A stretch of DNA of 64,000 nt from positions 62,001 through 126,000 of the forward strand of contig QPMI01000478.1 in NCBI GenBank assembly GCA_004431415.1, read 5' to 3'. How positions within the stretch are numbered: the stretch's first letter is position 1; each line of letters starts with the position of its first letter. Origin of the DNA: Cyanophora paradoxa CCMP329. Its lineage: Eukaryota > Plantae > Glaucophyta. A program made the translations under genes and the position numbers. Below the pieces are notes generated by a model. The model had not been told where the DNA came from. It ran no database searches and worked only from the letters and a program-made list of their open reading frames with translations. Positions 287 through 54,671 of this stretch are shown here, piece after piece.

Positions 287-2822
287 ATTAATATTCATAA
301 CACAATCAGGGTCCGATTCATATCTATTTAAAATGTGACATCGTGACATCGAACCTCGCACCTCAGGGTCGGCCAGGTTGACTCCCGCCTTGTTCGCCTC
401 CGTTGTGACCGTCGTCATTGCTGATGCCATCGCGCTGGAGAGCTGCAGAGTGAATGCGTTAGAAATGTTAGGCGAAGAAAAGAGAAGGGTGGACTCAGGA
501 AATCCAACCAGGTTAAGCAGCGTCGAGTTCCCTGCGGCCTGCTGCAGGAGACGACGGCCGCGGCGGAGCGAGCTGCCTGAGGCGGCGTTGTACTTCGCCT
601 TGAGGCCGTGGACCAGCGCCACGATCTGCTTCATCTTCTGCTTGAAATCCAGTTTGTCGTTCTGCATCGCCTTATCTCAGTATTCACGCATTGTCGCGTG
701 TGGGATTAGTGTGTAGGCACGCGGGGATGCGACCTGCCGACCCTGGGCTCGGCGGGACGCGTGGGATCGCGAGGGATCGCTATCGCTCTGTAGTATTCTC
801 TAGAACCGTGTATCCCTATGAGTGATCTGTACCCGGACAGGCCCGGCGTACCCGTAGTAGCTATAATAAGCGGTGGCCGAGGCGTACTGACGCCGACGTC
901 GGCCCTAGCAGCACGTAGGCTGCACTAGCAACTAGCAGCACGAAGGCTGCACTATCTAGCTCCGCATGCACGATAATCATGCATGCGACACGCATTGAGC
1001 TGGCAATTGATTTGCGTACCGCAAGTATCGACGTCATCCGAGCGTTAAAGTCCGCGACGGTTGCCTGTTTGCAATAAAGGTATGCGTAACCAATATATAT
1101 AATTGAAGCGAACTGGCGTTGCGCGCGATTCGAGTGCGACACTCACCTCGAAGTCGCTCACAGCGTTTCCGGATGAAATAATTAGCGGAGTGACAGTAAC
1201 TGTGCCTGCGTTTGCGGTGGTAGATTTGCCCCCATTCGTGTTCGCGATTTCGACTGACACAATCGCCCGAATGGCACTCGACGATACCTTATCCATGATT
1301 TAGCAAGCCCGAGAAATATTAGCGAACTTTAACGATACATGTGGCATTAATATTGTCAGAGCTTACCGCGGGGAAGAAGAGTTCAAGCGGCATTGTCAGA
1401 GCTTTAGTGTAGACGGTGACGGCGCTGCTGGAGTCCGATGTGGTGTAGGAAACGGTGTACGTCAGCGTGGTCGGAGTCCAGCCCGAGCAATTGACCTGGG
1501 CCCGCAGGCTTAGGCGCCGATACTTGATGGCATAAGCTTAAGAAGGAATGCAAGCGTACCGTTGCGGGCTCGACGCCGGCCTTGACAGAAGCCGGCTCGA
1601 TCGTGCATATCCCTCCCGAAGGAGCCGCTGAACCCCGCCAATTGCAAAAACCAACGTTAACATGTACAGGAACTTAGATTGCAGATGCGGGCCTCATTCG
1701 CATTTTTAGAGCGGACCTGTCTTCTCATCGACATTTGGGGCTTCTGTGGGTGCAGGCGCCGGCAGCGGTGTTGGTGACGGCGTCGAGCTTTGTCCAGAAT
1801 GCACGTGCACATGTACATGCCATGATCCGATGATCAATATTCCAATCTACACAACGTTAACAGCGCAGTCCCTTGCGCGCACCTCGGCGCCGGCGAAGGA
1901 GTTGGGCTTGCGGTAGCGCTCGGGCTCGGGCTCGGGCTCGGGCTTGGTGTTGGCTGCACGTGCACAGCGATTAGCCGCGTGGTGAAGCATTTAATTTGCC
2001 GCATTTGGCCCAGAGCTGAAACGTAATATATCTATAATCGCCCCCGGGCCTACCACATAGTGGTATGCGCTCGTAAGCAACGGCTCGGACGGGTCCGAGT
2101 GCTCGCCAATGGCAGATACAGCCTCGGCGACGCAGCTCGTGTTTAGAAAGCTGCTGGACAGGGGCAGAGCAGCGGTTGCCGTGATCGTGAAGCTGACACT
2201 CGTCACGGATGGGTCCCCAATAGAAGTCGTGGGTATGGTGGCCGTCCCATTGCCGCTCACGTCCCCCGCGCACTTCAGGAACACGCTCGCGATTCCCGGC
2301 AGGGGCAAGAAGGTCACAGTAGCAGAGATGGACGCGAATTCCGAAGAAATGTTCGCGGAATCGATGGTCGGTTTGAGCGGAGTGCGTCCTTTGGCTGCAA
2401 AAATATTATCACGATTGCAGTACCCGAGCGTATCGATTGCAGCGGTTACGTCACTTTAACTTACGTGTGCGCGGACGCACCCATAATTTGGAACTTGAAT
2501 CCCTCTCCTCCGTTCACGTTTGAAGCTCTGCGTACGGCGATGTAATACGTTTTGCCTTTGAGAAGAGCTGCCGAAGTCATGTCGCCGAAAAACGATAATG
2601 GAGTATAGTAGTTTGACCATGAGGCCACTGCAGCGAAAGACGAAATATCATTAATATTTAATACATTTTATTATTTTATTGTGCGCGGTACTGAAGTGCG
2701 TGCCTCTCGGCGCCACGGTCCAGCTGTCAGTTGAGAGCACGTAGCCAGAGCATTCGACAGGTCCGAGAATGTACACCGGATTGAAGCGGAACTGTCCAAC
2801 TCTCCAGCGGACAATTGCAAGC
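287..2822 (-). CDS. 3' exons of a multi-exon host gene (large secreted/surface protein); exon boundaries approximate
   Basis: Minus-strand coding blocks (ORFs 53-667, 1045-1296, 1991-2317) separated by short AT-richer intron-like gaps; S/T-rich beta-type sequence and an RRLLQ motif; same strand as signal-peptide exon at 58419. Confidence 0.5.
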
Positions 2823-2830
2823 CTATATAT
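2822..2830. repeat. Left copy of 9-bp direct repeat CCTATATAT (candidate target-site duplication)
   Basis: Identical to 54663-54671; both lie where host-like sequence changes to virus-like sequence. Confidence 0.65.
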
Positions 2831-3188
2831 GAGGGCCATCAATGGGCCAAACGCGAAAAGTCAACTCCGAGAGCTCGAGACTCGGAAGTGACGCTTGGAT
2901 TGCGGAGGTTCTTATAACCGCCGCAACAGCTGTGGGGGTACCCCCTCCGAGGCTGGCGATCGCGGCGATCACGACCCTGGCGATCGCGATTTTCTCCCGA
3001 TCGCGACCCTTTTCGATCGCGATTTCGAGATCGGGGACATTAATGCGATCGCGAGAAAGGAAAAATCGGAAAAGGCCGAAAAGTGCCGTTTTCACGCGTG
3101 AAATCGATCGAAAACGAGGGTTCGAATCCCGGGCCCGGATTTGGACTTGGTCAGAATCTCGAGTCAAAATGGGAGAAAAATGTGACCT

Positions 3189-3247
3189 GGGACTTGGGAC
3201 TTGGGACTTGGGACTTGGGACTTGGGACTTGGGACTTGGGACTTGGG
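3189..3247 (+). repeat. (GGGACTT)8 tandem array, copy 1
   Basis: 8 perfect units followed by GGGAAGAGTTAGA. Confidence 0.95.
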
Positions 3248-3305
3248 AAGAGTTAGAATCAGAGTCTGGACTCAAAAGCGGGGAAATTTTCGGACGGGGA
3301 GAAAA

Positions 3306-3776
3306 ATGTCAGGCAATCTCTATTACGATTTCCCCTTTGAGTTGCATATGGCATTCGAGAGGCTGCGCGAGTTCTGGCGTTGGCACCTCACAGGACATGA
3401 CATTCCCGACATAACACCAGAGCCCAACACACAGGGCGTGCTTGAAGTCATCCGTCAATATCCGCGTCGATTCAATGAATGGATCGAGTTCCACGCAACG
3501 AACCGTTTCCAGAGTCTCCCCGAGGCCATACGCGAAAATTTCGTGAGGCTGGTGGGACCAGGCTACGACAACCCTAACAATCATAGACCACGCCCAGCTG
3601 GCGTGACGCGCGAAGCTCGAGAAGACCGTAGACTTTTCCGCAGGGAATTGAGAGAGGATAGACGGAGGCTTTCAATGGGGCTCCCGCAGATTGTGAGGGG
3701 GTACAGCCCGGATTACGAGACTTACCAAGAATTGTACGGCTTCGAAAATCCCCTTGAGAGGGTACTACCAGGGTGA
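3306..3776 (+). CDS. Viral hypothetical protein with weak F-box-like LPE motif
   Basis: ATG 3306 after AAATTTTCGG; FQSLPEAIRENFV resembles motifs in the ORFs at 52971 and 53714. Confidence 0.6.
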   Translation: MSGNLYYDFPFELHMAFERLREFWRWHLTGHDIPDITPEPNTQGVLEVIRQYPRRFNEWIEFHATNRFQSLPEAIRENFVRLVGPGYDNPNNHRPRPAGVTREAREDRRLFRRELREDRRRLSMGLPQIVRGYSPDYETYQELYGFENPLERVLPG

Positions 3777-4114
3777 GGGGCCAGGGGGCCCCCTGAGGGT
3801 GTACCCCCCATCCGAGACTCGACCTTCGGCGGACGCACTCGGGCAATTTCCGTCAGGCCGGCTCCTTTTTCTGTCTTCGGTCCAACGCTAAATTTGGCTT
3901 TTTTCAGGCCAGTTGGCAACGTTTTCCGTTGCGAACTAGCCCAGGAAAAAATTCGCCCACAAAACCGCGGTCCGCCGCCATTTTGCCTCACTCTTGAAAC
4001 GGGTTCGCCGCCTTCTCTCAGCCCAAGGAAACCCTGCCTCTCCGAATTTTCACAAGTCCGCTCTCTCAGTCACCTCACGTTTTGCCTTTGCTGAACTCTT
4101 TTCCCTTTGCGCAG

Positions 4115-5179
4115 ATGTCGACTCCCGCTGAGCTTGCCGAGGACCTCGCCACTGTCCAAGCGACGTGGGCTAACTCCCGCGTTGGGGCTACCCCTGAGAT
4201 GGATCAACGCGCCAAGGCTCTGGGGTACATGTACGACTACTACATCGACATACACGGCTACCCCCGCGTCAACCTTTGTCTCACGCCTGCCCACGCGGCC
4301 AAGCTCAAGCGAGCCAAGGCCAAGCAACCCAAGCCCGAGCCCCCCGTCGACGTGCCCCCCGTCCCCGGCTGGGTCAAGACTCCCACTGGCTGGGGCGACC
4401 CCAAGCTTTTCGCCGAGTCTGCCGCCGAGACGCTCGCCTGGGCCTATCCCCCTCAAGTCTTCACGAATTTCCCCCCTCCGTCATCGTCGTCATCTGCCCC
4501 TCAGCCCGTCGCCGAGCCCGCCCCCGAGCCCGCCGATGACGCCAAGTCCGAGGCCTCTGACGCCGAGTCTGACATCAACGACTTCATCGACTTTGACGTG
4601 CCGATTCCATACGACTCTGAGTCGTCTTCTGACTCTGAAGGCGACAACGAAAACCCGACTCGCAAGCGCCGCATTATCAAGACCAAGTCAATCGTCAAGA
4701 AGAAGTTCATGGAGACTACGTCATTCACCGACAACTCCGAGCGCGTCAAGGACCCCGCCAAGGAAAACGCCAAGGACTTGAAGCTCGGCGCTGGCATTGC
4801 CCGTTCTCGCGTGACGTCACACTACAGCGAGCGCCTGACTCAGCACGTCAAGACCATTGAGAAGCGCGTCCTCTGCAACGAGCTTCGCAAGGAGTTGGAG
4901 CGCAAGCGGCGCCACGAGCGGATTCGCCAGCGCGAGATGCACAAGGCCCGCGTCGCCGAGCGCAAGCAGAAGGAGGCAGCCGAGCTCAAGGCGCGCATCG
5001 AGGCTCAGCGGCAGCGCGAGGCAGAGGCGGCAGCGGCCTTGGCGGCGCAGCGCGAGCAGGAGCGGCAGGACTTAGTGCAGGCAGCGCAGGCCCTTCCCCG
5101 CATTCCCCTTAAGTCGGCGCCCGAGGCCCCGATTGACTTGGTTTCCGATGACGATGACTCTGACTTTGAGATGCTGTAA
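4115..5179 (+). CDS. Viral hypothetical protein (acidic and coiled-coil regions); probable 5'UTR intron 4056-4114
   Basis: Long GC3-rich ORF; ATG directly follows a GTCCGC...GCGCAG intron-like segment. Confidence 0.75.
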   Translation: MSTPAELAEDLATVQATWANSRVGATPEMDQRAKALGYMYDYYIDIHGYPRVNLCLTPAHAAKLKRAKAKQPKPEPPVDVPPVPGWVKTPTGWGDPKLFAESAAETLAWAYPPQVFTNFPPPSSSSSAPQPVAEPAPEPADDAKSEASDAESDINDFIDFDVPIPYDSESSSDSEGDNENPTRKRRIIKTKSIVKKKFMETTSFTDNSERVKDPAKENAKDLKLGAGIARSRVTSHYSERLTQHVKTIEKRVLCNELRKELERKRRHERIRQREMHKARVAERKQKEAAELKARIEAQRQREAEAAAALAAQREQERQDLVQAAQALPRIPLKSAPEAPIDLVSDDDDSDFEML

Positions 5180-5253
5180 ATAGTATTGCGTCATTCCATT
5201 GTACATACTTGTAAAAATTGGCCGACTATTCAGTTATGACTTGGCGCGATCCT

Positions 5254-5326
5254 GGGACTTGGGACTTGGGACTTGGGACTTGGGACTTGGGATTTGGGAC
5301 TTGGGACTTGGGACTTGGGACTTGGG
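5254..5326 (+). repeat. (GGGACTT)10 tandem array, copy 2 (one GGGATTT variant)
   Basis: Direct reading; downstream flank similar to copies 1 and 3. Confidence 0.95.
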
Positions 5327-5753
5327 AAGAGTTAGACTCAGGGTCTGGGCCCAGACTTTCTCTGGATCTGAGAGTTTGCTGCACCAAGTCCCTAACCACC
5401 GGGCAGACTTAGAAAGGGGTACGGAATTCTGGATACGACGTTTCTGGTGACATTCCAGGTGAGATTTCAAGCGAGGTAGAGTCTGAACTGTCGTACGACT
5501 TGTAGCATGATACTGGACATGAAAGCTCACGAGAGTATGCAACCGAAAAAGGATGTGAAGAGGGGTAGGAGTATTCGTGCGAGATGTCGAGAGAAGGAGG
5601 GTACGAGATGGGATACGAGTAAAAAAGACTACGAGTAAAAAAGAGTACGAGGGTTGGTAGGAGTAAAAAAGTCGGTAGAAAAACTCACCTGACTTGTCTG
5701 ACAAATTTCTGATCCTGGAGAAAGTCTGGGCCGGGACCTGGGTTTCAACTCTT

Positions 5754-5812
5754 CCCAAGTCCCAAGTCCCAAGTCCCAAGTCCCAAGTCCCAAGTCCCAA
5801 GTCCCAAGTCCC
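5754..5812 (-). repeat. (GGGACTT)8 tandem array, copy 3, inverted relative to copy 2
   Basis: (CCCAAGT)8 on +; flank 5708-5753 is an imperfect reverse complement of 5324-5372. Confidence 0.95.
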
Positions 5813-5836
5813 AGGTTTTTCTGAACCTAGGGCAAA

Positions 5837-6202
5837 ATGGCCCTGCTCCGGTGCACCGACTCGCAAGACGTCGCCTACAACGTCCTGGTCAACTCGGACG
5901 TACCCCCGAGTGCCTTGGAGTTTCCCTGGAGAGTGGACAGGGACAGGGTGAGCAAGACGTTTGGAGGGCGCAAGCACTACCTCTCCCAACTGATCCTCGG
6001 GAAGTCGCCACGTGGACGTTACGTGGAACACATCAACGGCAACCCGCTGGACTACAGGAGGGAGAACCTACGCTGGGCATCAATGTCGGAGATTCGCAAG
6101 AAGAGGAGGGGGTACGCCAATTTACAGGAGAAGAGCGAGGAAATTGCGGAGATGATGGAGGCGGCACAGGCGCTAATGCAGCTTAGCCAGTCTAGATGCT
6201 AG
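5837..6202 (+). CDS. HNH endonuclease-like protein (HNH_3 type)
   Basis: VEHINGNPLDYRRENLRW motif; upstream TTTTTCTGA. Confidence 0.8.
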   Translation: MALLRCTDSQDVAYNVLVNSDVPPSALEFPWRVDRDRVSKTFGGRKHYLSQLILGKSPRGRYVEHINGNPLDYRRENLRWASMSEIRKKRRGYANLQEKSEEIAEMMEAAQALMQLSQSRC

Positions 6203-6974
6203 TGGTGTGAATCTTAGTGTCGTACTCACGGTCGATCGTGCTCCAGGCTACGTAGTTTGTAGCCGTGCCGTTTGCAGGGTTGGTGGTGGCGGTGGTGTAG
6301 TCGGCCTCCGCTTCTATCAGCTCGGCCATGAGGGTAGAGCCCACGACCATTCCAGAGGTAGGCATACCCGCAATGTTGTTGTACAATTTGAAAGTGAATT
6401 TCGTGAAGAGAAGCCGGGGCCAGACCTGGGTACGGGGATTCGAGGAATCGTAGGAAAACGAGGTACCCGAGACTCCGCCCGTGGTGGCATTCGTCATCAT
6501 CTCCTTTGCGGTCATCTTCCAGAGGTTGTACATCTCAAAGGGGACGGCCTGTGTAGTTTTGCGCGTGCTATCGATGGCAGCACCGTCGATGTGAGTCTTG
6601 GAGCCGCCATTAAATGTGCGGGTGAGGGCGGTGTTCGCAGTGAACTTGAGCTCGAGCACGCGAATCGCGGGCCGATCGGGTACGGAGGGCTCTATCTTTT
6701 TAAGGAGGCCGGAAAGCCAGAGGGCCTCGGCCTCGTCCGCGCTCACGCCCGAGTCGATGTCAAAGTACACGTACACGGAGCAGGAGGCGGGATTCTCGAA
6801 GTCGTTGGAGGTGATGCGCAGCATGACTGGATTCTGGATTTTCACGGTCAGCATGGAGGCGTAGTTGCCGTCCCAGACCACGGAATCCGTCCCAGCGTTG
6901 GCCGCTACGGTGTCGCCGTAGAAATCGGGGGTAGGCAGCACGGTCTTCACGATGGTGGCCGAGGTGGTCGGCAT
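6192..6974 (-). CDS. Putative virion protein, paralog of 6998-7678
   Basis: Shared blocks QNPV, SGL(L/V)KK, LE(L/V)KF, PR..FT.F.F, L.AEL.E; ATG at 6974. Confidence 0.75.
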   Translation of the reverse strand: MPTTSATIVKTVLPTPDFYGDTVAANAGTDSVVWDGNYASMLTVKIQNPVMLRITSNDFENPASCSVYVYFDIDSGVSADEAEALWLSGLLKKIEPSVPDRPAIRVLELKFTANTALTRTFNGGSKTHIDGAAIDSTRKTTQAVPFEMYNLWKMTAKEMMTNATTGGVSGTSFSYDSSNPRTQVWPRLLFTKFTFKLYNNIAGMPTSGMVVGSTLMAELIEAEADYTTATTNPANGTATNYVAWSTIDREYDTKIHTTSI

Positions 6975-6997
6975 TTTGCGATCTCGAATGAGAAAGA

Positions 6998-7678
6998 TTA
7001 TCCGTAGAAGAGGGCGATGTCGTTGCCGATGCCCGAGATGCGGGCCGCGGGCTGCACGGCGTCGGAGCCGGTGGTGTGCCTGTAGGAAATCGAGCACTCG
7101 CGCAGCTCCGCGCAGAGGCTGGCGCCCGTGCTGAAATGGGGCTGGTCTGCGGCGTACGTGAGGGGGAAGACCTGGAACTTGAAGAAGGTGAAGGGAAAGC
7201 GGGGTAGCCCGGAAGCGCGCGGGTTGCCGCCCGTGTAGAGGGCCCCCAGGGTCGCGGGGCTCGGGTTGAACTTCGTGAAGAGCACGTCACCCTTGAGCGT
7301 ACCCCGCGCAGTAAACGCACCCGTACCCGGCAGGTCGGTACCCGTGTACTGGTTCACGGTGGGGCCGTACCCCGTCTCCCTGAACTTGACCTCGAGACAG
7401 CGCAGGACGTTGGCCGTGGCCGTGGCAGGCGCCACCTTTTTCACGAGGCCGGATTCGTGCAGCAGCTCGATTACCTCTGCGCTGAGGCTGGAAGGGTCGA
7501 AGAAGAGCTGATAGGAGTAAATCTTGGGCGTGGCGTAGGCGTTCTGAACGACCTGAATCACCACAGGATTTTGCAGAAAGACGTCGACGTAACTGCCGGA
7601 GGGGATTCGCGCGAAATCCTTGGTGTTGTTGCCAACGTCAAGTGAGCCGCTGAGGGTCTGGTACCAGTTGGAAGTCAT
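6998..7678 (-). CDS. Putative virion protein, paralog of 6192-6974
   Basis: Same conserved blocks; beta-rich composition. Confidence 0.75.
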   Translation of the reverse strand: MTSNWYQTLSGSLDVGNNTKDFARIPSGSYVDVFLQNPVVIQVVQNAYATPKIYSYQLFFDPSSLSAEVIELLHESGLVKKVAPATATANVLRCLEVKFRETGYGPTVNQYTGTDLPGTGAFTARGTLKGDVLFTKFNPSPATLGALYTGGNPRASGLPRFPFTFFKFQVFPLTYAADQPHFSTGASLCAELRECSISYRHTTGSDAVQPAARISGIGNDIALFYG

Positions 7679-7717
7679 TTACCCCGGCGCAGATATTTTT
7701 TCGGATCGTAGAGGAAA

Positions 7718-9649
7718 ATGCCCCGCTTCGTATTCGTGAAGAAACAGGTGGTGCAGGCCCCACAGTACGGCGTGGAGCCAATTTCGCTGACTGTGGGCAG
7801 GCCCCAGATCCGATCGGGCGCTGTGCTTGACAATGGAGGCGGCACATATGGGTTTCGATTGAACTGGAACGCGGTCACTGACGCAGTCAAGTACAAGGTT
7901 TACAGAGGGACAAACGTTGACGGGCCGTGGACACTGGTGACCACGGTGAACGCACCCACGGGCACGTACACTGACTCGCCCTTTAACTTGGGCGATGTCC
8001 GAATCTACCGAGTGGCGGCCGTGCGCGAGCAGAGCGGCAGCAGCACCGGCTCGGATGGTAAAGCCCCGCCTACCACCTACGCGCAAACCCTTCTCTACAC
8101 GCACGAGGGCGCCATGAGCAATTACATTTTCTTCCAAGGCATCCGGCCCTTTACTCCCCCAGTCGAAGCCTACACCACGCTCACGACCGCCGCGGCCCAG
8201 ACCTACGGCGATTTTATCGCAGGGGGCGGCCCTGCGTCTGCGGGCTTCCCGAAGCCCACCTTTGTTGTCACAATCAACTGGGTGGCCATGGAGGGCGCGG
8301 ACTCGATTCGCATTTACAGAGATGGTACCCCCATCGGATTCGCGAGCAGCGGACTATCTACCTCGTACATTGACGATAGCACTGCCCTCGCATGGGGTAC
8401 GGAATACTCCTACCAGGTGGCCGGCATCGTGGGCGGGGTCGAATACGAAAAGTCCGATCCACTCCCGGTCTGGACGATGCCGAACGCACCCACGAACGTG
8501 ACGGCGACCGCACCCAACGATCAGCAGCAGCCCGTCAGCCTCAACTGGAGTGCTTCCACGGGAGCAACGGGGTACAAGATTTACAGAGACGGGGCCTACC
8601 TCGCAGACTCCGCGACCAACTCATACAGCGACGCGACCACGGTCTGGGGTACGGGGTACGAGTACCAGGTCTCCGCGACGAACTCGGGAGGGGAGGGGCC
8701 GAAGAGCGTGACCATCAGCGTCACCACAGATCCGGCGGCACCGGCCTCAATCTCCACTTCACAGCCCTCGTCGGATACTCCCAGCGTTGCCATCACCTGG
8801 ACACCCCCTGCAATTGGCGCGGCCACCTCCTACAACGTCTACAGAGGGGGCATGGAAATTGGACACAATGTTACGAGCCCATACACGGACACCACTGCGG
8901 CGTCGTTTGTGGTTAACACATACTACGTTAAGGCTGTCAATATTGTGGGCGAGGAGGGCCCGACATCGAACTCATCGGCTATCACTCCCACGTCCGCCTC
9001 AGCCCCGCCGGTGGCATCGGGGCTGGTTTTGATGCTGGACGCTTCGGATGCCACGACATTTACATTGTCAAGTTCCAATGTCGTCCAATGGCGGGACAAG
9101 AGCCCCAATGGCAACCATTTCGGTCAAGTGGCTGGTCACGGGCCCCCTACGCGCACCCTTACTCGCAACGGGCGCTCTGTTGTTTCCTTCGATGGTACCC
9201 AGCTGCTGGTCCCGACAGCTGACGTTGGGCCATTTAACACCTCTGGTGGGACGTTCATCGTGGTAACAAAACCTACGGGCCCAAATGGGGGTGCGTATAA
9301 GACCCTGTATGATTCCTCCACAGCCGTTCCAATGCTGTGGTACCGCCCTGATACCAGACTCGAGCTCGATACCAGCACGACGGCTATCTCATCGACCTCA
9401 TTCCTGAACACATGGCTGTATTCTTTCCACTCGGTGGGCAGCACGAGCGCCTGGTATTTGCAAGGCACTTACCGATCTGCCTCTGCCGTCCCTTCAAATA
9501 CAAGAATGACATTCTGGCACCGTGGCTATGATATCAATACTCGTTACGTAGGCGATATGGCTGAGCTGCTCATCTACGATCGACCACTTACATCATCGGA
9601 GCGTGACCTAATCTTTAGCTACATTCGATACAAATGGGGGTTCTCGTAA
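7718..9649 (+). CDS. Fibronectin type III repeat protein with C-terminal LamG/concanavalin-like domain (candidate attachment protein)
   Basis: About four FN3-like repeats (W...A..YKIYR...YTD...Y.Y.V.A.N..GE), then LVLMLDASD...VVQWRDKSPNGNH...GDMAELLIYDRPLT. Confidence 0.85.
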   Translation: MPRFVFVKKQVVQAPQYGVEPISLTVGRPQIRSGAVLDNGGGTYGFRLNWNAVTDAVKYKVYRGTNVDGPWTLVTTVNAPTGTYTDSPFNLGDVRIYRVAAVREQSGSSTGSDGKAPPTTYAQTLLYTHEGAMSNYIFFQGIRPFTPPVEAYTTLTTAAAQTYGDFIAGGGPASAGFPKPTFVVTINWVAMEGADSIRIYRDGTPIGFASSGLSTSYIDDSTALAWGTEYSYQVAGIVGGVEYEKSDPLPVWTMPNAPTNVTATAPNDQQQPVSLNWSASTGATGYKIYRDGAYLADSATNSYSDATTVWGTGYEYQVSATNSGGEGPKSVTISVTTDPAAPASISTSQPSSDTPSVAITWTPPAIGAATSYNVYRGGMEIGHNVTSPYTDTTAASFVVNTYYVKAVNIVGEEGPTSNSSAITPTSASAPPVASGLVLMLDASDATTFTLSSSNVVQWRDKSPNGNHFGQVAGHGPPTRTLTRNGRSVVSFDGTQLLVPTADVGPFNTSGGTFIVVTKPTGPNGGAYKTLYDSSTAVPMLWYRPDTRLELDTSTTAISSTSFLNTWLYSFHSVGSTSAWYLQGTYRSASAVPSNTRMTFWHRGYDINTRYVGDMAELLIYDRPLTSSERDLIFSYIRYKWGFS

Positions 9650-9652
9650 TCG

Positions 9653-10466
9653 TTACGCAGGATTGACGAGCTCCCCTGTGAAGCAGCTGTAGTTTCCGCC
9701 GTGCAAGGAGCCCAGTCTCAGGTGCAAGGATACTTGTGTTCCTTGTGTAAGGTACACGATAGTGTTAAAGGTTAGCGGTTTGTACACTTGTGGGAAATCT
9801 GGATCTCCATCCGAGGTAGCTGTGGCCACGACAGAAGTACCCATCACAAGATCCACGAATGTTCGAACAGAAGGCGAGTTATCGGTAATCCCCACGTAAG
9901 TAAACCGGTAATATCCAGTGATAGGGCACGTAAAGTCACCGGTGGAGGGGTTCCACGAGGCCGACGCAGCATTGTTTACCCAGTTTGTGATTTTCATTCC
10001 TGTACTCGTGTTCAGTGGACCCGGAAGCACAGCACAGAAGAAGGGTTTTTGGATGTGGTGTAGGTATCCACCCTGAATGACCACATTTCCGTTCACTCTT
10101 AACCCACCAACAACATTTGCACCCCCTCCCTGCACGTACAGTGCTGCGTTGCCTTCCCCGTCAGCGCCACCATTGAATGTAAGAGCGTTTGTAGTGTGCC
10201 CGCTCCCGTCCCACGCCCCGTTCGTGACGGTGAGCCTCTGCGTCCTCACGCGCCCCGGCACGGCCGACCCGCCCTCCCGCGTGCGCATCTTGTCGCAGCG
10301 CAGCTCGCCGACGCGGACGAGGTCGGCCTCGGAGAAGGGGACGGCCGTGGCGTTGTAGGGGGTCTCGGTGGCCTGGTTGCCGAGGGTTGTCTCTTTGATC
10401 GTGTGATCCGCCTTGTGATTCACGCTGGCAGCGTAGGTGAAGAGCTGCGCAAAAGAGTCAGGCCAT
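9653..10466 (-). CDS. C1q/TNF-like domain protein (candidate fiber head); start codon apparently 1 nt out of frame
   Basis: WNPSTGDFTCPITGYYRFT...LTQGTQVSL...FTGELV C1q signature; ATG at 10466 is one base off the ORF frame. Confidence 0.75.
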
Positions 10467-10543
10467 GTCAAAAACAGAAATAGAAAAGGATGGGGTACGC
10501 ACCGGAACAGCAACCGACATTTTCTAAGCCCTTAGAAAAAGCG

Positions 10544-11035
10544 ATGGATCACATTGCAATCCCCATTTGCGGCCCTCGAAATGTGGGGAAGTTCATGTTA
10601 GTCGACAGTGGAGACCTACCATTGGTTGCCCAGAAGAAGTGGTATCTCAGTACCCATGGGTACCCAGTAGCTTACATCTGGCACTCTCATTCGAAATGTT
10701 CAACCGTTTTCGCTCATCGCATCATCGCGGGCGCTTCTGGTCGGCACGTCTCGGTGGATCACAAAAACCACAACCTGCTTGACAATCGGAAGGGTAACCT
10801 CCGCCTGTGTACACATGCCGAGAATCTCCGCAATGTCAAGGTGCGTAATCAAGCATCGAAGACCTCAAAGTACAAAGGTGTGGGCTTCAACAAGCAAAAG
10901 CAACGTTGGCGGGCACGGGTGCGGCTTAATGGCAAGGAGCACACTGCCCATTTTGACACTGAAGAGGAGGCTAGGCAGTGGTACGATAGGAAGTGCGTAG
11001 AGCTGTTTGGTGAATTTGCATACCCAAATCCTTGA
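10544..11035 (+). CDS. HNH-AP2 homing endonuclease
   Basis: VDHKNHNLLDNRKGNLR (HNH) plus SKYKGV...RWRARV...FDTEEEA...FGEFA (AP2). Confidence 0.92.
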   Translation: MDHIAIPICGPRNVGKFMLVDSGDLPLVAQKKWYLSTHGYPVAYIWHSHSKCSTVFAHRIIAGASGRHVSVDHKNHNLLDNRKGNLRLCTHAENLRNVKVRNQASKTSKYKGVGFNKQKQRWRARVRLNGKEHTAHFDTEEEARQWYDRKCVELFGEFAYPNP

Positions 11036-11040
11036 AAGCA

Positions 11041-41129: not shown

Positions 41130-41197
41130 CTAGCACTGCTACAGCTGATGGTCCATGCAGCCGCTGGCTTGAAGATGGTGACACGCGAACGGGAAGA

Positions 41198-43236: not shown

Positions 43237-43242
43237 GACCTC

Positions 43243-43403
43243 AGCTTAGAGGCCTTGGCTGCGAAGCAAGACTGAGGCTTGTACCCCAGGGGCGCACTTA
43301 TAACTTGTAAGTGCGCCCCTTGTACATATGTGCGTAAGCAAGGCTGCCTTTATTTGGCAGCCATACACTGCCCTATGCTACGCTGACGCTCACATAGGTT
43401 CGA
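43243..43403. repeat. Split direct repeat A, terminal copy (161 bp)
   Basis: Identical to 41198-41358; contains hairpin GGGGCGCACTTA...TAAGTGCGCCCC. Confidence 0.95.
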
Positions 43404-43467
43404 ACGTCGACGGACTTGAGCAACTTGGAAAAGGGAAAGGGGGGAATGAACGTTTGAAAAGGGAGAG

Positions 43468-43659
43468 TTAACGCCCGGCGGGGCGCATGCCGGCCGTCGC
43501 CTGCGAGTAGGAGCCGGGGGCGTAGAGGGTCTTGGCGGCGTAGCCGAAGCCCACGCCGATGACGGCCGAGGCCGTGGGCGTGCCGCCGAGGAGCCAGGTG
43601 AGGGTCGCGGCGAGGGCTCCTAGCGAGTAATGCGGGGGATAGCTGTCAGCGAGGGCCAT
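43468..43659 (-). CDS. Small hydrophobic viral protein
   Basis: ATG 43659 after TTTTTCTCA; two hydrophobic segments. Confidence 0.55.
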   Translation of the reverse strand: MALADSYPPHYSLGALAATLTWLLGGTPTASAVIGVGFGYAAKTLYAPGSYSQATAGMRPAGR

Positions 43660-43708
43660 CGCGGGACCGAATTGAGGGAGGGTTGAGAAAAAATACCGCC
43701 TCGAGGCC

Positions 43709-46700: not shown

Positions 46701-48948
46701 GAGACGGGCGTGGCGACGGGCGTGCCCCGCGGCGGCGAGGGGATGGGGAGGGCGAGGGGGTACCCTGGACGGAGGGCGGCGGGCGCTGCGAGCGCTGCGA
46801 GCGCTGCGACGGCGGGACGGGGCTGAAGGCCGAGGGGTTGCCGCTCGGGCGCCAGGAGACGTCGGAGGCGGCGGGGCTGGCGGGGGGCACGGGGGCGGGC
46901 GGGCGGCGGGGGGAGACGAGGGGCGGCCTGGGGCCAGCGTCGCCGGGCTCGTCGTCCGAGAACTCCTCCACGGGCGGCGGCGGGGCGTACTCGAGGGAGG
47001 GGGAGGGCGGGAGGGGGTAGAACTCGTCGACGGGGGGCTCGGGCTCGAAGGTGTCCCCCGCCGCCGCCGCCGCCAGCTCGGCGTCGGCCTCGCCCTCGCG
47101 CTCGCGCTCGCGCTCCAGCTCCATCGCGTACTCCTCCGCCACCTCCAGCTCGCGCGCCGCCTTCGCGTCCGCCGCCGCCGCCAGCGCGGCCTCCTCCTCC
47201 ATCTCGCGCTCGGCCTCCAGCTCCTCCTCTGTGGGCAGGGTCATTCCTTTGCGGCGCCGGAACGCCCTAGGCTCAGAATTTTGGGGTGGGGAGGGCGCAC
47301 CGGCCGGCTCGGGGCCGGCCGCCTTGGGGGCCGCCGCCTCCATCTGCTCGCCGAGATCGCGCCGCGCCGCCGGGGCGGGCGCGTCCTCCTTCTCGAACTT
47401 GAGGTTGATGTAGGCGACCTTGCCCTTGCCCTTGCCCTTCGCCTGGGCCTGGGCCTGGGCCACGCGCATGGCGCGCGCGAGGCCCTCCGCCGTGATCTTG
47501 CTAACTCCGGCCCCGTCGCCGGAGGCGGAGGCCGTCGCCTCGCCGATCGCCGCCTGGAAGGCCGCGGCCATCGCCCGGCCGGCGCGCGGCAGGCTCCGCG
47601 CCCGCTCGAGCTCCTCCTCCGTGAAGTCCAGCGCCCGGGCCGCGGCGGCGGCCTCGGCGTCGCGCTCCTCCTCGGAATCCGAGCCGGAATCCGAGGACTC
47701 CGTGGCCGCGAGCATGGGGCGGGGGCGGGAGGCGGCGGCGGCGGCGGCGGCCGCCGCCTTGTCGAAGACGGGGACGAAGAAGGCGAGGGCGAGGGTGCGC
47801 CGCGGCACCACGTACTTGACGGCGCCGTGGATCATGGGGCGCCCGTACGAGTCCGGCATCGAGCACCGCCGGATGACCTGCGAGGGGGTTTAAATGGCAT
47901 CTAAATAGTCTAAATAGCATCTAAATAGCATCCAAATAGAAACGGCGCACCTGCACGCGGTCGCCGATGGTGACGCCGGGCACCTCGAACTCCGGAACCA
48001 GGTCGAAGGCGCAGATGCCCTGGCGCCCGTGGCGGTCCCGGCACGTCCGGCAGGCCGCCTCCAGCACGATGCGGATGGCGTAGGCGTCGGTGAGGACGCC
48101 GGTGTCCGGCCGCTCGCCCAGACCGCCGAGCTCTCGTGGCGCGTGATGAAGTCGCGGCTGTTCTTCTTGATGCAGCGCACCTCGATGCCCATGATGCCCT
48201 TCGCCAGCATCTGCGGGCCGGCGGGGGTCGGCGGGGAGGGGCGGTCGCGGCTGCACGGGCGGCTGGGGCGCACCTCGGGCTTGTAGGCCGGGTCCGAGCT
48301 GAGCACCAGCAGCCAGAGCAGGTGCCCGGCCGCCTCCGCCATGCGGTTGAAGTAGAACTCCTCCGGGCCCGTCAGCAGGCCAATCGTGCGCCACTCGCCC
48401 TTGGCGATGTGCCGGGGCACGGCGCCCATGAGCAGCCGCAGGCGCTGCGCCGCGAACAGCCGGCGGGCGTCGGCATCGCGCCCGGGCTTCGGCTTGCTCG
48501 GCGTGTCGAAGTTCTCCTCCGTCATGTTCAGCGCCGCGTGCATCGCCCGCACGTCCGCGTCCTGCGATGCGCCGCGGCGCCTCAGCCGCTGCGAGCGCAG
48601 AGAGAAAGAGGCAGCGAGCACCTCCGCGAGCCGCAGCCGCGACAGGACGGAGTCGATGGAGAACTGCACCGACGGGCCGGGGGCACCCTCGGCGTTCAAA
48701 GTCTGCGCCGCGGCCAGCTTGCGCTTGCGCTCGGCCAGCTCGGTCTTGCGCAGCACATCCTTGCTGTTCGGGCTGAACTGCATGCCGTCCTCCAGCGCCC
48801 GGGCCTGCGCCTCCTTTGCCTGGTCGCTGATGCCGGCCTCGAAAACCGTCCAATCGATGCCGAAGCTGTCGCCGATGCAGAGAACGTCGTACAGCGTGTT
48901 CCTCGCCAGCTTAGCCGGGATCTCCGGAGGGAGCGCGAGCCGAGACAT
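43709..48948 (-). CDS. Multi-exon gene for a large replication protein with a superfamily 3 (D5-like) helicase domain
   Basis: Splicing 45375-45429 restores Walker A GQSGTGKS; Walker B MVMAE, ELKMRSGD, motif C VIVCN, RVVLIP; about 9 short GT-AG introns; continuity of the 5' half is inferred. Confidence 0.75.
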
Positions 48949-49246
48949 GCTGCCGCCGCTGCTGCTGCTGCCGCCGCTGCTGCGAGTGCTGCGCGCGGGC
49001 TGCGAAGGCTTTGGCGCCAAGTTTCCAGCTGGTTTGAACGAGCGGCTTGCATTGCATCGCCAGAGAGAAAAAGCGAGAAACCGACGGGGGGTTGCAGCCT
49101 GGGGGGGTACGCGACGCGGACGGGGGGAGAAGCGCGCTTCAAGTCTGAGTCTTCGCGAATTAGGGGGGGGGGCAAGCCAGTGCGGGGTACGACCCGTGAA
49201 CGGAATCCGTTGGAGGTGTTGCACTTCACTGGCAGTAACAACCACC

Positions 49247-52022
49247 ATGCAGGCGGCGACCTTCCGCTCCTGCGCGAAGCAGCAGCAGCCCGGCGAGCAG
49301 GACAGCATAGCCCGCGATCTCGGCAGCCTATCGGCGGAGGAGGCGCTCAACGCGATGACCTACGATAGCGTGTTCAACTCGGCCGGCGTGCCGCGCTTCG
49401 AGCCGTTCGGCGGGCTGAAGAAGATCCAGAACACGGACGGCCACCCGAAGCACTTGAAGACCAAGGGCCAGTTCACGCCGGTTAATAAGTTCAACGAGGT
49501 TCGCGGTTTCGCCCGCACCGCTTCGGCCCCGGCTCACATGCCCCGGCTCGCGTGCCCCGCGCGCAGATCGTGCCTCACAGCATTCACGAGCTGCCGGAGT
49601 ATGTGAAGGCGAAGTACGGCTTCACGCACGGCGATGTGGCGCTGTTGCTGATGTCCGACAATGCGGCGGCGGGCTGCTTCAACAGCATCGCGCTCCATCG
49701 CGATTTCCATCCGCGCGCGATCTTCTCCGGCACTCCGGAGCAGAAGGAGTTCCTCGCGGACCTCAAATCCGGCAGCGGCGGCGCCCACGGGGTGAGGGCC
49801 CTTCCTGCGCTCGCGTGCCCGCGCTTGCTCACGCCCGGGCCGCCGCAGCTCTTGATCGCGCGGGATCAGTGCCTGGCGTCGGTGACGGAGAAGGAGAAGG
49901 CCAGCCCGTCCGGCCTCGGCGTTCGGTGCGATTACGTCATCGTCACCAAGCGCATCAACCCGACGTACGCCAAGAAGTACGACCTCAACTTCGTCTACGT
50001 GAAGGAGGGGCCGCCGGCCTCGCAGTACACCGTCACCGTCCAGGCCGGCATCTGCGCCGGCGAGACCACCAACGGCGCGTACCACGGCGTCGGCACGCTC
50101 CCGTCCGGCGGCTTCTTCGACGTCGTTGATCACATGTTCCTCTCCTGCGCCGATGACATTTACGTGCGCGAGAGCCCGCCCTTTCCCTTTCCCCTGCCCT
50201 GCGCGCGCTAAGGTCGCGTCCGCAGGTCGGAGAGAACCCGAGCGCGGAGAGCCCGCTGGGCTACGCGTACTGGCTGGTCAGCGTGCAGAAGGTGCTCTCC
50301 TGCGCGGCCCTTCGGAAGTACGCCAGCGTCTGCGACTCCGGCATGCGGCCCCAGCTCCAGCTTCTCGTGGATCAGGGCCGGAGCGACGAGACCCGCCAGC
50401 GCCACCGCGATCTCGCGCGGGCGGCCGTGCTGAAGCTGGAGGAGGTTCTGCGCGAGGGCCACCCAAACGGGCCGGCCCGCGCCCGTGAGATCCTCTCGGC
50501 GGCCATCTCCGTGATCGTCGGCGAGCTCTCGCACACGGTCCGCCGCCGCCCCGCTTAGCCCGCCTCTCCTCCCTGACCCGGGCCCTCGGAGCGCAGGAGG
50601 AGTCGGACGTTCTCACGGCGCGGGCGGACGAGTTCCAGCGCCAGGCGGAGAAGATCAAGTGCTGGTACGAGAAGGTGAAGAAGGCGGAGGAGACGGACCT
50701 GCGCGACTGGGGCAGCAAGAGCGGCGACGCCGAATTCGACCGCGACAAGCTCAAGCGCGTCTTCTACTGGATGCGCATCTGCGCCAAGCTGGAGGCGCTG
50801 ATGGACGAGTGGCACATCGAGGGCGTCCGTCTGGCGAAGGCGATGATCGCCATGGAGTGGGGCCACGGCCACCCGGCGCGCAAGGAGTGCAGCATGCTGG
50901 CCAAGGAGATCGGCCGCCGGGGCCGCTACATCAAGGAGGTGGCCTACGGCATCGAATGTGCGTCCGCCCGCCCTTGGCCTGCGCCCCGCCCTTGGCCTGC
51001 GCCCCGCGCTCTCCCCGCTCACCCCCTCTCCCGCAGTTACCATCCCGCTCGTCCAATTCTTCCAGCGCGAGTTTGTGCTGATCCAGGCCTCCATCATCAA
51101 GATCGGGTCGCTCTCCGCCAAGGAGGTGGACGAGGCAAGGGACGAGGGCCAGGCGGAGGCGGAGGCGCGCTGGGACGATGCGGCGTTCAGCGCCGTCTGG
51201 GGCGTCGGGGACAACGCGCTCTCGCCCCCCGCCCCGTTCGGCTTCAGCGGGCGGCCCGCGCTGGCGTTCGACGAGCACGGCCTCCCCGAGCTGGCGGACT
51301 GGGACGTCGAGGCGCCGGTGCCCGCGCCCTTCCCCCTTCCTCTCCTCCTCGGCCCCTCTCACCGCCTCCTCCAGCCCCCGGCGTCCTCGGCTCCGGCGTC
51401 CTTGGCTCCGGCGTCCTCGGCCCGGCCCTCTGCCCACCTACGGAGAGAGGTGTGCCCACCGCGCCGATTGCGCCCTCAACGGCTCCCACCTCCTGCCCGC
51501 CAAGAAGGCCCGCCTCGGCCTCTTCTCACCCCACCCTCTCAGCCCGGTGAGTGACTCTGAATCGGAGGGCTCGGAGGCCTATAGCACGCCCCGCGACCCC
51601 GACGCCCCGCCCCACAAGGCCGGCGCCTTCGGCTTCTGTAAGTGACGCCCCCACGCAGGCCCTGCCGACGCCGCCCGTCGCCAACCGCGAGCCCCTCGTC
51701 CAGGTGAGTGCCCGGGCTGCCGCGAGTGGCGGCTCGAGAACTTCTCGGCTCAGGTCCCGCCACGCAGCAGGCCCGCGCGATCCCGGCCTCGCCGCCCGTC
51801 GTCCCCGCCGCCGTCGCCGTGGAGGGCGGCGTCTTCGACATGGAGCTGGAGCCGGCACCCTCGCAGGCCTCGCTCGCCTCGGCGCGCTCGGCGGCCCTCG
51901 CCACGCAGGGCTCGGCCGCCCCGGGCTCGCCGCCGCCGTCGCAGGCCTCGGCCGTCGCCAACTCGCCGTACGATGACATGCCGCCGGTACTCAGCCCCGA
52001 GGACGACTTCCCGGGCCACTGA
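49247..52022 (+). CDS. Multi-exon viral gene of unknown function, divergent from the helicase gene; 3' exons uncertain
   Basis: GT-AG introns at ~49499-49566, 49792-49848, 50164-50225, 50538-50596, 50958-51036 join coding-like blocks. Confidence 0.65.
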
Positions 52023-52263
52023 ACGACACTGAGACGGTGAGCGCAGGCCCGCCCCGCCCTCCGGCCCCTCTCCGAGCAAATGGTCCACAACGCCATAGTG
52101 GACGCCATGTGGGATAACAGGGGCCGCCTCCCCCACCCCTTCCGCTACGTCTCTATGGCCCTCCGCGGCCTCGCCTTCCCGCCCCCCTGCACCGAGCAGC
52201 TCAACCAAATCCTGCGCGGTCTGATTCATTACAGACTCGCCTATCCGGCCTGGGCCTGAGCCG

Positions 52264-52920
52264 CTACATCAGCGCGTACGTCTTGAATTCCCTAAGCGCT
52301 AGCTGCTCCTCGCTGAGGTTCTCTGACTTCATTCGATCGCTGTAGGGCTCGGGCGGAGTCCCCGCCTTTACGTGCATCCAAAATAGCTGTAAGCACTTCC
52401 TCATGAGCTCGATGTACCTCTCGTCGCGCCTGACGTACCACGTTTGCACGCGCAGAGGAGTGAAGCAAAAAAGTTCGGCCCACTCGCGGCCCGTTATGTC
52501 CAGCAGGCCCTGGAGCTGGGGCATGTAATAAGTTGGGACCTTTTCGTACAGTTCGCCCTTGTACGGGCATTTCACCTCTAAAATTCTATCATTTCCTATA
52601 AGTCCGTCGGGACTACCGGCGAGGAACGGCATTTCTTTATGTTCGTGCAGTCCAGTATGTTTAATGTCAACGTTATCGTTCAGTGCCTTGTAGATAGAGA
52701 CCGCGAGGGGCTCATAGTCATGCCCGTAGGTTAGGGCAGGGTTGTCAAAGTTGTTTTCCTCCGCTATGCCGCTTAGCTCCGCCCAGAGGCGGGCCCTGGA
52801 TTTCCAGGGATTTATACCACACGCAGCCGCAAAATTAGATGCAGTTAGTTTTTCACGGCGCGCCGCGTGCCACGCCGCGCTCCCCTGTTGCAAAGTCTCG
52901 CAATCTGTATCGGTATGCAT
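52264..52920 (-). CDS. YqaJ/lambda-exonuclease family PD-(D/E)xK nuclease
   Basis: QGSAAWHAARREKLTAS, GHDYEP, AGSPDG, LEVKCP, YMPQLQ. Confidence 0.93.
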   Translation of the reverse strand: MHTDTDCETLQQGSAAWHAARREKLTASNFAAACGINPWKSRARLWAELSGIAEENNFDNPALTYGHDYEPLAVSIYKALNDNVDIKHTGLHEHKEMPFLAGSPDGLIGNDRILEVKCPYKGELYEKVPTYYMPQLQGLLDITGREWAELFCFTPLRVQTWYVRRDERYIELMRKCLQLFWMHVKAGTPPEPYSDRMKSENLSEEQLALREFKTYALM

Positions 52921-52970
52921 AGCTTAGCCTCGCAGTAGCGTTTAGAATTTCTTGATGTGTGCAATTGCAA

Positions 52971-53675
52971 ATGCCCGATGACGAAGATTCGGACCCGGTC
53001 GTGCATATGGACGAAGATTCGAGCCCCGAAGAGTTCCTGACTCGTGTAAGGGGCTTGGCACATTGGATCCGAGATAAATTCAAGGAGGGGATGCGAAATC
53101 AGATAGGAATGTCGTCCTTCCCGCTAAGGGGGCTAGCCCCTGTTGCATCCCAGGGGCTGCGGGATACCGTGAGGCTCGCCCCCCCATCCTATGATCGGAA
53201 CTGGGACTTCAGCAGTGTGCTTACGTCCCTGTACGTGGCGCTGATGTCGCCTAGAAGCCGCGTGGCGCGTCTGCCGAACGAGGCCAGGTTGAAGATCATG
53301 AACTTCTTACTCGCAGGTAGAGACGGGCGCGAAGGCGATGTGATCAATGGGCTTCGAAATGAGATACAGTGGTACATGCGTACAGGCGAAGGCGGTGTCC
53401 GGCAGTACGACGGCTCACGGTACACGGAGCTCGAGATTCCACGCGAGCTCGTACCCCGGAGCTGGCAAGAGCTTCCGCCCGCCCCACCCCCGCCCCCCGC
53501 CTACGTATCCCCCTTCGACTCGAGGCCCCCCGTCAACGAGCGCAAGCGGCTGCGCGACTGGCTGCAGGACGATCGAAACCGTCTGCCGGGCGAGCCAAAG
53601 GTCGGCACTATACCCCCAGAGGAGGAGGCGTACCCCGTTTTCGAGAATAATCGCTTGACGTGGAGATGGACGTGA
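52971..53675 (+). CDS. Viral hypothetical protein, paralog of 53714-54567
   Basis: EEFLTRV...WIRDKF and RLPNEARLKIMNFL shared with the next ORF. Confidence 0.7.
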   Translation: MPDDEDSDPVVHMDEDSSPEEFLTRVRGLAHWIRDKFKEGMRNQIGMSSFPLRGLAPVASQGLRDTVRLAPPSYDRNWDFSSVLTSLYVALMSPRSRVARLPNEARLKIMNFLLAGRDGREGDVINGLRNEIQWYMRTGEGGVRQYDGSRYTELEIPRELVPRSWQELPPAPPPPPAYVSPFDSRPPVNERKRLRDWLQDDRNRLPGEPKVGTIPPEEEAYPVFENNRLTWRWT

Positions 53676-53713
53676 TTGGGGGTACAGATAGATATTCTCA
53701 GTGAGCCGCAAGC

Positions 53714-54567
53714 ATGGCGCGAACACGCGAGTCCGACGTGCTGTACAACAACGGCGACCTGGACGGGGAGATTCGTCAGCGGAACGTGGACTTGGAGGAT
53801 GCGAACGCAGTGCTGGAGGGGAGGCGCACGTCCTCAGGGGGCGGCTCGCCGGCGGAGAACTTCATGGAGCGCGTGCTGTACCTGGTGCGCTGGATTAGAG
53901 ACGAATTCCACGACGAGCGGGAGCTCCCGGACAGGGAGATGATCAGGGCCGCGGGCTTGATGGGTATGACAGAGAACCCGAGATCGTACCTGAGGCGCGA
54001 ACGCAGGGATCTGAACGGCGATTGGGCGGACCTACAAGCGCTGTGGACGGCCTTTGCGAACCGCAAGAGCCAGATCCTTGCCCTGCCCGCGCAGGTACAG
54101 CAGCGTATCATTGATTTCGTAGCCCCTGGCGCGACGAGTCCCTCCAGCAGCCATTCATGCAACCACGCTTCCTCTCCGGGCTCAGGAGCGCGTTCTTCCA
54201 CTTGGCCGTGAGCAGCGACCGGTATTTCACACCGCAGAGGATCGTTCACGGCGAATTTGGCATACCCCCCGAGTGGCTGAATTTTGCCACCGTACCCCTT
54301 CCCCACCCCGCCTCGAAGGCCCCCCTCCCTACCCCGAGCAGCGTGACTCACTCAAGCGTCAGAGGGAGGTACGTGAATGGATGGACGACACCAGCCACTG
54401 GGTACAGGGCGAGGCCGAATTACGCAAGTTCGGAAGGTTCGGGCAGTAACAGCAGGGGGTACAGCATTCAGTTAGCGCGCGAGAGGGTTAGAGGCTGGGA
54501 GGCCTGGGGGGGGGGTACGTCAGACGTGTTAGTCCCCTGCCTCCCTGAATGCAATATAACAATGTAA
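53714..54567 (+). CDS. Viral hypothetical protein, paralog of 52971-53675 (frameshift near 54140)
   Basis: ENFMERV...WIRDEF and ALPAQVQQRIIDFV; continues in ORF 54157-54567. Confidence 0.65.
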
Positions 54568-54662
54568 CCTCCGTGACGCGTGACTCATCGAACCTCCGAG
54601 GGTTAACAATGCATTGACAGCGAAAGGGCAAGCTCGAGAGCTCGACCTTTGGCAAGAGCCCA

Positions 54663-54671
54663 CCTATATAT
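54663..54671. repeat. Right copy of 9-bp direct repeat CCTATATAT
   Basis: Identical to 2822-2830. Confidence 0.65.

Follow-up and report, generated by a model that had tools for sequence, protein, structure and literature searches.

A 51.8-kb insert in the genome of the glaucophyte alga Cyanophora paradoxa CCMP329 (assembly GCA_004431415.1) lies precisely within a single host gene, and no viral integrase is detectable in it. It fills most of the stretch analysed here (the window: 64,000 nucleotides, positions 62,001 to 126,000 of contig QPMI01000478.1), and its gene content matches the description of a mriyavirus-like, more specifically gamadvirus-like, provirus. The virus class and its presence in this host lineage are already known; new are the anatomy of the ends and a testable, integrase-free route of integration. 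As a tentative leading explanation, we propose that insertion is the work of a viral HUH enzyme, which would join the viral genome, at its origin, to a TATATA-type target within an intron. Coordinates of the features are collected in Table 1.

The insert is bounded by two copies of CCTATATAT. This 9-bp direct repeat had been noticed in the initial annotation, and a window-wide exact-match search found both copies and no third on either strand. In empirical trials, 11 of 3739 host 9-mers recurred in the 451-nt left boundary zone, and host composition predicts 0.0006–0.0013 occurrences of CCTATATAT per 600-nt boundary zone. On the minus strand, both copies read as an AG acceptor, each closing an intron. 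Deleting the insert in silico joins the upstream exon (54744–54888), an 80-nt intron (54743–54664) and the exon beginning at 2822 in an open frame of 92 codons with no stops (the other two frames hold 2 and 3), which bears out the earlier proposal that removal restores an intron acceptor linking the exons of the two flanks. By eye, a repeated protein module that closes with a TYY-type motif spans the site, beginning in the right flank and finishing in the left. The motif TATATA occurs nine times in 6.6 kb of host flank versus never in the 51.8-kb insert. The host gene is probably disrupted, because use of the acceptor at the first junction would run into a stop codon 20 codons into viral sequence. 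Splicing of the whole provirus as one giant intron is conceivable, if improbable, since on the gene's strand the right junction places a GT directly after the AG and the left copy keeps its acceptor. Further out on the host side, positions 59700–60650 hold an element of ∼950 bp resembling a miniature inverted-repeat transposable element, with inverted arms of 103 nt at 95% identity and further nested arms; it adjoins a duplicated 87-nt block.

The exact termini were sought by comparing the ends under different registers of the duplication. With an 8-bp duplication (2823–2830 and 54664–54671), the left end of the element reads GAGGGC and the right end GCCCAC, which match in inverted orientation at five of six positions. 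The other three registers tried give matches of 1 or 2 of 6, or 3 of 6, and symmetry of five in six has a chance probability of ∼0.01 over two registers. The right terminus therefore more likely lies at 54663 than at 54662, where it was first placed, and the duplication may be 8 rather than 9 bp. The accompanying claim that terminal inverted repeats are lacking stands for long ones and fails for short ones: within the terminal 60 nt the longest inverted match is 6 and the longest direct match 11. Long inverted repeats were considered as termini and rejected, as those found are internal or host-side. The two copies of the direct match, CGAGAGCTCGA, are set in from the left and right ends by 37 and 18 nt, respectively, and no further exact copy exists; a match as good was seen in 14 of 4000 pairs of randomly drawn 60-nt pieces. 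A degenerate pattern of the right end had no matches in viral contigs or in metagenomes, and Rfam gave none over 3400–58600. Near the left end, tandem arrays of one 7-bp unit at 5253–5327 and 5753–5813 form a facing inverted pair, with a third array of the unit closer to the end; together the arrays bracket the first viral genes.

Contigs from three DNA sequencing runs (X1, X7 and X20) and from a further run, possibly of RNA (X21), were compared with the junctions. The right junction is spanned with no differences on one contig in all three DNA runs. Along most of the host flank the depth is even, at 41.7, 125.4 and 123.3 in the three runs, and it reaches 2611, 8688 and 9083 in the last viral bin, ∼60–75 times the host flank when summed over contigs, which is not a copy number. 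Read depth thus marks the right edge independently. The initial annotation had suggested looking for an empty allele and for a circle junction, and neither was recovered. No empty allele appears in X1, X7 or X20, and no contig breaks at 54663, its expected branch point, with the limit that contigs drop rare variants and that all runs may derive from the source strain. Among the contigs listed, none unites the two viral ends. The unique contig starts at 54642 in X1 and X7 and at 54656 in X20. If the contigs were built from 31-mers, as we assume, a start at 54642 means that the last 30 bases, with the complete repeat among them, also occur in some other sequence. Candidates are a circle, a second copy inserted at this target, and slippage in the TA tract. 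In one X21 contig, 13 of the last 20 viral bases match, including the last six, followed by one of the eight repeat bases, which suggests that the terminus is conserved while the flank differs. X21 covers 12 of 30 bins and nothing across the insertion site, and no RNA data set was listed for the right host flank; neither bears on expression. Host-gene stretches 56161–56200 and 57806–58100 recur elsewhere in the genome and in an X21 contig at depth 84; a paralogue therefore has these modules. C. paradoxa is probably haploid (PMC6704402).

The claim that the insert lacks an rve or serine integrase was upheld. Of 280 stop-to-stop frames of at least 90 amino acids, 274 were scanned against Pfam; the other six lie over simple-repeat tracts near the left end, where two genes were scanned from their ATG. 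Outside the nested retroelement no integrase was found in these 274 frames, in 61 open reading frames (ORFs) or frames searched against PHROGs, or in 30 searched against NCBIfam, and no rve, DDE or serine integrase matched anywhere in the 274. Most viral ORFs lack any family match and several are split by introns, so a divergent enzyme may escape detection. The sole integrase-family match, a tyrosine recombinase at 38011–38805, lies between the identical split repeats of the retroelement and so belongs to it, as first supposed. Hallmarks of the DIRS order are gag, reverse transcriptase (RT), RNase H, a tyrosine recombinase and split direct repeats, and the nested element has all the DIRS-order features looked for. 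One split repeat of 161 nt stands at 41198 and 43243 and another of 63 nt at 37537 and 41357, each pair identical. The internal junction of the 63-nt and 161-nt repeats separates gag from pol instead of lying close to the 3′ end. The 8-base AAAAGGGA occurs at the left edge of the retroelement and again ∼52 nt past its right repeat, which leaves its true ends and duplication ambiguous.

To judge by their sequences, both HUH genes of the provirus encode proteins with Rep/Y1-type motifs. The two lie side by side and share 28% identity over 108 amino acids (E 4e-9); the short one is intact and the long one frameshifted in this sequence, with its HUH and YxxK motifs in different frames. Relatives of the short protein number 157 and include proteins of 1,500–1,900 amino acids that match at their C-termini. 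Its predicted structure (pLDDT 75) has Y1 transposases among the top folds, with Z 7.1, root-mean-square deviation (rmsd) 2.7 and 103 aligned residues for one and Z 6.5, rmsd 4.6 and 114 aligned for another. Foldseek places ISDra2, IS608 and SIRV1 ORF119 at E ∼0.01–0.04, and the best viral fold match has E 5.7e-12.

Related copies are numerous in the same alga. Window proteins cluster with C. paradoxa gene models, which account for 15 of 17 HUH matches and 11 of 11 capsid matches (29 member sequences). By hand count, the core genes stand in order, two or more per contig and with neighbouring gene numbers, on at least 23 C. paradoxa contigs. The 18 near full-length capsid models, chosen from the 29 members by leaving out fragments and fusions, fall into three groups with 91–100% identity within and 58–68% between, which points to repeated recent insertion. 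In a 23-row tree, ten HUH copies form one clade (support 98/98) beside two environmental proteins. Scans for related loci with the HUH protein, the ATPase, the HUH alignment and the capsid alignment confirmed no locus.

In the mechanism that we tentatively favour, the two element ends would be the halves of the viral replication origin. Once joined, they would form a short hairpin centred on the join and flanked by two 11-bp sites in the same orientation. The HUH protein would nick at the joined ends, remain attached by Tyr264 and pass the strand on to a host target of the TATATA type, much as IS91, IS608, Helitron and Replitron enzymes act at short targets. The 8–9-bp repeat would then stem either from host gap filling, as a true target duplication, or from a core shared by circle and target, with a slight lean to the former. 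Extended to the group, and held a shade more cautiously still, the proposal is that the rolling-circle initiator of mriyaviruses doubles as their integrase: virion-encoding relatives of giant viruses, such as this 46-kb one, would insert at their origin into TATATAG intron acceptors and multiply in the host genome like a giant IS91 or Replitron. Of the routes first suggested (HUH-mediated strand transfer, microhomology or an enzyme acting in trans), the HUH route is ranked highest, on account of the Rep/Y1-type motifs in the two HUH genes and of ends that resemble a split origin; chance microhomology fits poorly, as the ends are symmetric and at least 23 syntenic copies exist. The direct orientation of the subterminal repeats, an intact Y1 enzyme, the lack of an integrase and the many recent copies all favour HUH insertion. 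Origin iterons are established as direct repeats in rolling-circle plasmids (discussed in PMC10288648), and the HUH transposon Replitron-1 has target duplications together with short terminal direct repeats (PMC10288648), so HUH elements can leave duplications.

Several points weigh against this mechanism. Both ends are in view at a single locus, and symmetric ends with an 8-bp duplication are a textbook sign of DDE enzymes. Canonical HUH transposition gives no duplication, and Replitron-1 is possibly noncanonical (PMC10288648). The presence of HUH genes by itself says nothing about integration, because all mriyaviruses carry them for replication (bioRxiv 10.1101/2024.02.29.582850). A strong origin hairpin was sought at the joined ends and not found: the predicted one has only 4 bp, with a z-score of −3.0 at 10 nt per side, where the ends were picked for symmetry, of −0.9 to −1.4 at 15 and 30 nt, and of −0.1 to −1.6 with the repeat kept. 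The fold scores of the short HUH protein are middling (Z < 8) and tied with those of an unrelated adenovirus protein, and Foldseek found no PDB match at E 0.001. The shared last 30 bases imply a shared core or a fixed target more than a random target duplication. Finally, the X21 contig with the differing flank may be spliced RNA; the flank would then be an exon end and silent on the target.

Among the alternatives, a DDE-type transposase or integrase would recognize the short symmetric ends, either as a viral enzyme that is divergent or intron-split enough to go undetected or as that of a host transposon acting in trans. We regard this as unlikely. Its strength is that the symmetric 6-bp ends and 8-bp duplication fit a staggered double-strand transfer, as known for elements of the hAT, P and Zisupton groups. 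The majority of viral ORFs match no family, and the related Zora and VC218 viruses often have rve integrases (bioRxiv 10.64898/2026.06.19.733378). It is weakened by the empty result for rve, DDE and serine enzymes, by an inverted match that ends after 6 bases and by subterminal repeats that are direct.

No more probable is a route in which end joining by the host traps a linear viral genome of unit length, whose ends are defined, at a staggered break that arises by chance or is cut by one of the two viral HNH nucleases, and fill-in then duplicates 8 bp. The provirus does encode an exonuclease and a resolvase besides the HNH enzymes, such elements have been read as mainly accidental (bioRxiv 10.1101/2025.04.19.649669), and TATATA is host-like by its distribution between flank and insert. 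Nonetheless, at least 23 syntenic copies in three capsid groups are many for accidents, both ends appear untrimmed, and described yaraviruses look circular or terminally redundant (bioRxiv 10.1101/2024.02.29.582850).

It is quite improbable that a tyrosine recombinase, for example of the nested retroelement's family, crossed a viral circle with the chromosome in a shared 8–9-bp core. The recombinase in this copy lies wholly within the retroelement's own, still identical repeats and so is probably a later arrival; by eye, the host site has no matching arms, and the flank of the X21 copy differs, subject to the splicing caveat. What such an exchange would explain is the inverted arms flanking the core, as in att sites, and the contig branch right after the repeat in two of three DNA runs; a few recombinase-encoding Polinton-like viruses (PLVs) have flanking repeats of 7–23 bp (PMC12220804). 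Very improbable is a chance origin of the repeat in TA-rich intron sequence, or its creation by misassembly, with flanks that belong to different genes: TATATA runs are common in host introns, 48 of 3740 trials placed a host 8-mer in the left zone, the contigs hold no empty allele and read support covers the right junction only, but that junction sits without differences on one contig in all three DNA runs, the frame is open across the restored intron, the TYY-type module runs from right flank to left, and the terminal symmetry and 11-mers fall at both edges.

The assignment of the insert to Mriyaviricetes draws on size and gene content. Without the nested retroelement its ∼46.0 kb stands at the upper edge of the 35–45 kb of the class and is counted within it; integrated relatives in Phaeocystis, described as endogenous yaravirus-like elements, span 47.4–53.6 kb (bioRxiv 10.1101/2022.07.28.501842; PMC12480563). 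An A32 ATPase, VLTF3, a RuvC-like resolvase and HUH proteins with motifs I–III are all present. The capsid is predicted to be of the double jelly-roll type of nucleocytoplasmic large DNA viruses (NCLDVs) from Capsid_N matches of intact paralogues (E 1e-8, 1e-7 and 1e-4); its best PDB sequence matches are capsid proteins, at weak E values of 0.11 and 0.71. Neither a DNA nor an RNA polymerase matched in the Pfam and PHROGs scans, as fits the class. VLTF2 had no Pfam match in the 274 frames, where divergent forms would need a profile–profile search. Adjacent short and long HUH genes, with long relatives that bear a C-terminal HUH domain, are a trait of Gamadviridae. Viruses of that kind, such as the Pleurochrysis endemic viruses and Phaglo-G, share with the insert a size of ∼35–45 kb, an NCLDV-type capsid, A32, VLTF3, RuvC, a PD-(D/E)xK nuclease, side-by-side short and long HUH genes and the lack of DNA and RNA polymerases (bioRxiv 10.1101/2024.02.29.582850). 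Unlike them, the present element is integrated with base-exact ends in a glaucophyte, has intron-split genes and no recognized VLTF2, and its long HUH protein has ∼650 rather than ∼1,600 amino acids.

Integration genes are described as notably absent from mriyaviruses (bioRxiv 10.64898/2026.06.19.733378). Regions related to Mriyaviricetes have been reported in a Glaucocystophyceae assembly and read as mainly accidental insertions (bioRxiv 10.1101/2025.04.19.649669), and methylated viral regions ('GEVEs') in C. paradoxa (PMC12344493); both probably represent the same element family in the same host lineage. The available portions of these two reports, unlike the present analysis, give no ends, duplication, target or mechanism, and for no endogenous mriyavirus did a search of the open literature turn up a description of precise ends, duplication, target or integration route (subscription journals lay mostly outside the search). 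Polintons and PLVs are likewise multi-copy, capsid-encoding protist elements with short flanking duplications and frequent retroelement invasion, but they have long inverted repeats, an rve or tyrosine integrase and 4–6-bp duplications (PMC12220804). The pPolB gene is also frequent among them. The insert has no long repeats and no detectable integrase of its own: its longest terminal inverted match is 6 nt, neither an integrase of its own nor pPolB matched, and unlike Polintons and PLVs it carries VLTF3 and HUH genes. Replitrons, Helitrons, IS91 and IS200/IS605 resemble it in their Y1 HUH enzymes, short direct repeats at or near the ends and short targets, and Replitron-1 also makes target duplications (PMC10288648). 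These HUH transposons are small and have no virion module, whereas the insert, at 46 kb with capsid and packaging genes, is not a member of the group; by analogy, it may work like them.

Table 1. Features of the provirus, its junctions and the host gene (window coordinates)
Feature	Position	Strand	Remarks
Mriyavirus-like provirus	2831..54663		51.8 kb; ∼46.0 kb without nested retroelement
Repeat, left copy	2822..2830	+	8-bp reading 2823–2830; on the minus strand, acceptor before downstream host exon
Repeat, right copy	54663..54671	+	8-bp reading 54664–54671; original end of 80-nt host intron
Left terminal motif GAGGGC	2831..2836	+	from end comparison
Right terminal motif GCCCAC	54658..54663	+	5/6 inverted match to left end; kept in divergent X21 contig copy
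Subterminal 11-bp direct repeat CGAGAGCTCGA, left copy	2868..2878	+	candidate Rep-binding site
Subterminal 11-bp direct repeat CGAGAGCTCGA, right copy	54635..54645	+	exact match
Host exon upstream of site	54744..54888	-	borders by eye, checked by coordinates
Host exon downstream of site	2703..2822	-	3′ border approximate
First host exon, hydrophobic signal-peptide-like N-terminus	58033..58419	-	by eye
Short HUH endonuclease	20330..21172	-	280 amino acids, intact; H162, H164 and Y264 invariant, K267 nearly so, in 59 aligned relatives
Long HUH paralogue	18262..20306	-	HUH motif in ORF 18690–20306; YxxK in ORF 18262–18645, next frame
VLTF3 late transcription factor	21393..22223	+	Pfam PF04947, E 8.9e-25
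A32-like packaging ATPase	22964..24034	-	PF04665, E 1.2e-4, just under curated cut-off; PHROGs E 2e-9
RuvC/A22-like Holliday junction resolvase	24293..24769	+	PF04848, E 1.4e-7
YqaJ/RecE-like PD-(D/E)xK exonuclease	52264..52920	-	PF09588, E 1.8e-28
HNH endonuclease	5837..6202	+	library matches including PHROGs
HNH-AP2 endonuclease	10490..11035	+	library matches including PHROGs
Major capsid protein gene	28576..30018	+	four pieces, three frame changes; intact 481-amino-acid copy 94–100% identical
Intron-split gene, Walker A/B-like motifs	44212..46230	-	by eye; no library match
Nested DIRS-order retroelement	37537..43403	-	5,867 bp; gag with zinc knuckle, RT-RNase H, tyrosine recombinase, split repeats
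RT-RNase H of retroelement	39165..41129	-	inside 37537–43403
Tyrosine recombinase of retroelement	38008 to ∼39000	-	inside 37537–43403

Further families in the provirus are DUF5767, fibronectin and C1q proteins. The capsid and long HUH genes have single-base frame changes here and are intact in other copies, which reflects either decay or uncorrected long-read errors. The frameshifts were rejected as proof of decay, as they may be assembly errors; several single-base insertions relative to the window occur in the run contigs. The intron-split gene with Walker-like motifs probably encodes an SF3 helicase and is the candidate for the SF3 or SF2 helicase expected of Mriyaviricetes. It lies in a section (44200–52260) where several viral genes are cut by GT-AG introns of 55–70 nt and where GC content is 68% versus 61% for the rest; the presumed RNA run has one GT..AG joint at 52035–52234 in a related copy. 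The spliced gene P0200 gave weak hydrolase-like leads only (Atlas) and a single-sequence fold with pLDDT 35. A 1.4-kb segment (33754–35212) with four related blocks of 60–90 nt, direct and inverted, and 15-bp tandem units is possibly an internal origin or an invertible segment. Small ORFs at 3306–3776, 25949–26287, 52971–53675 and 53714–54211 have, by eye, a W-I-R-D-like motif and no library match, and may form one paralogous family. The 260-amino-acid gene at 32469–33251 has 22 cluster members and lies four genes from the capsid in many copies; its product may correspond to the T7-like single-strand binding protein that gamadviruses have.

Mriyaviruses are described as having no integration genes yet are present in algal genomes, and their insertions have so far been read as accidents. 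At this locus the ends are defined to the base and both a target and an enzyme can be proposed, in an alga that can be cultured and is probably haploid. Its genome holds dozens of recent copies, and the capsid gene is intact in many of them. The integration route of integrase-free Nucleocytoviricota thereby becomes a testable question. If insertion is indeed HUH-driven, replication and integration would depend on the same enzyme in a double-stranded DNA virus lineage near the root of the giant viruses, and this would explain how such viruses colonise host genomes.

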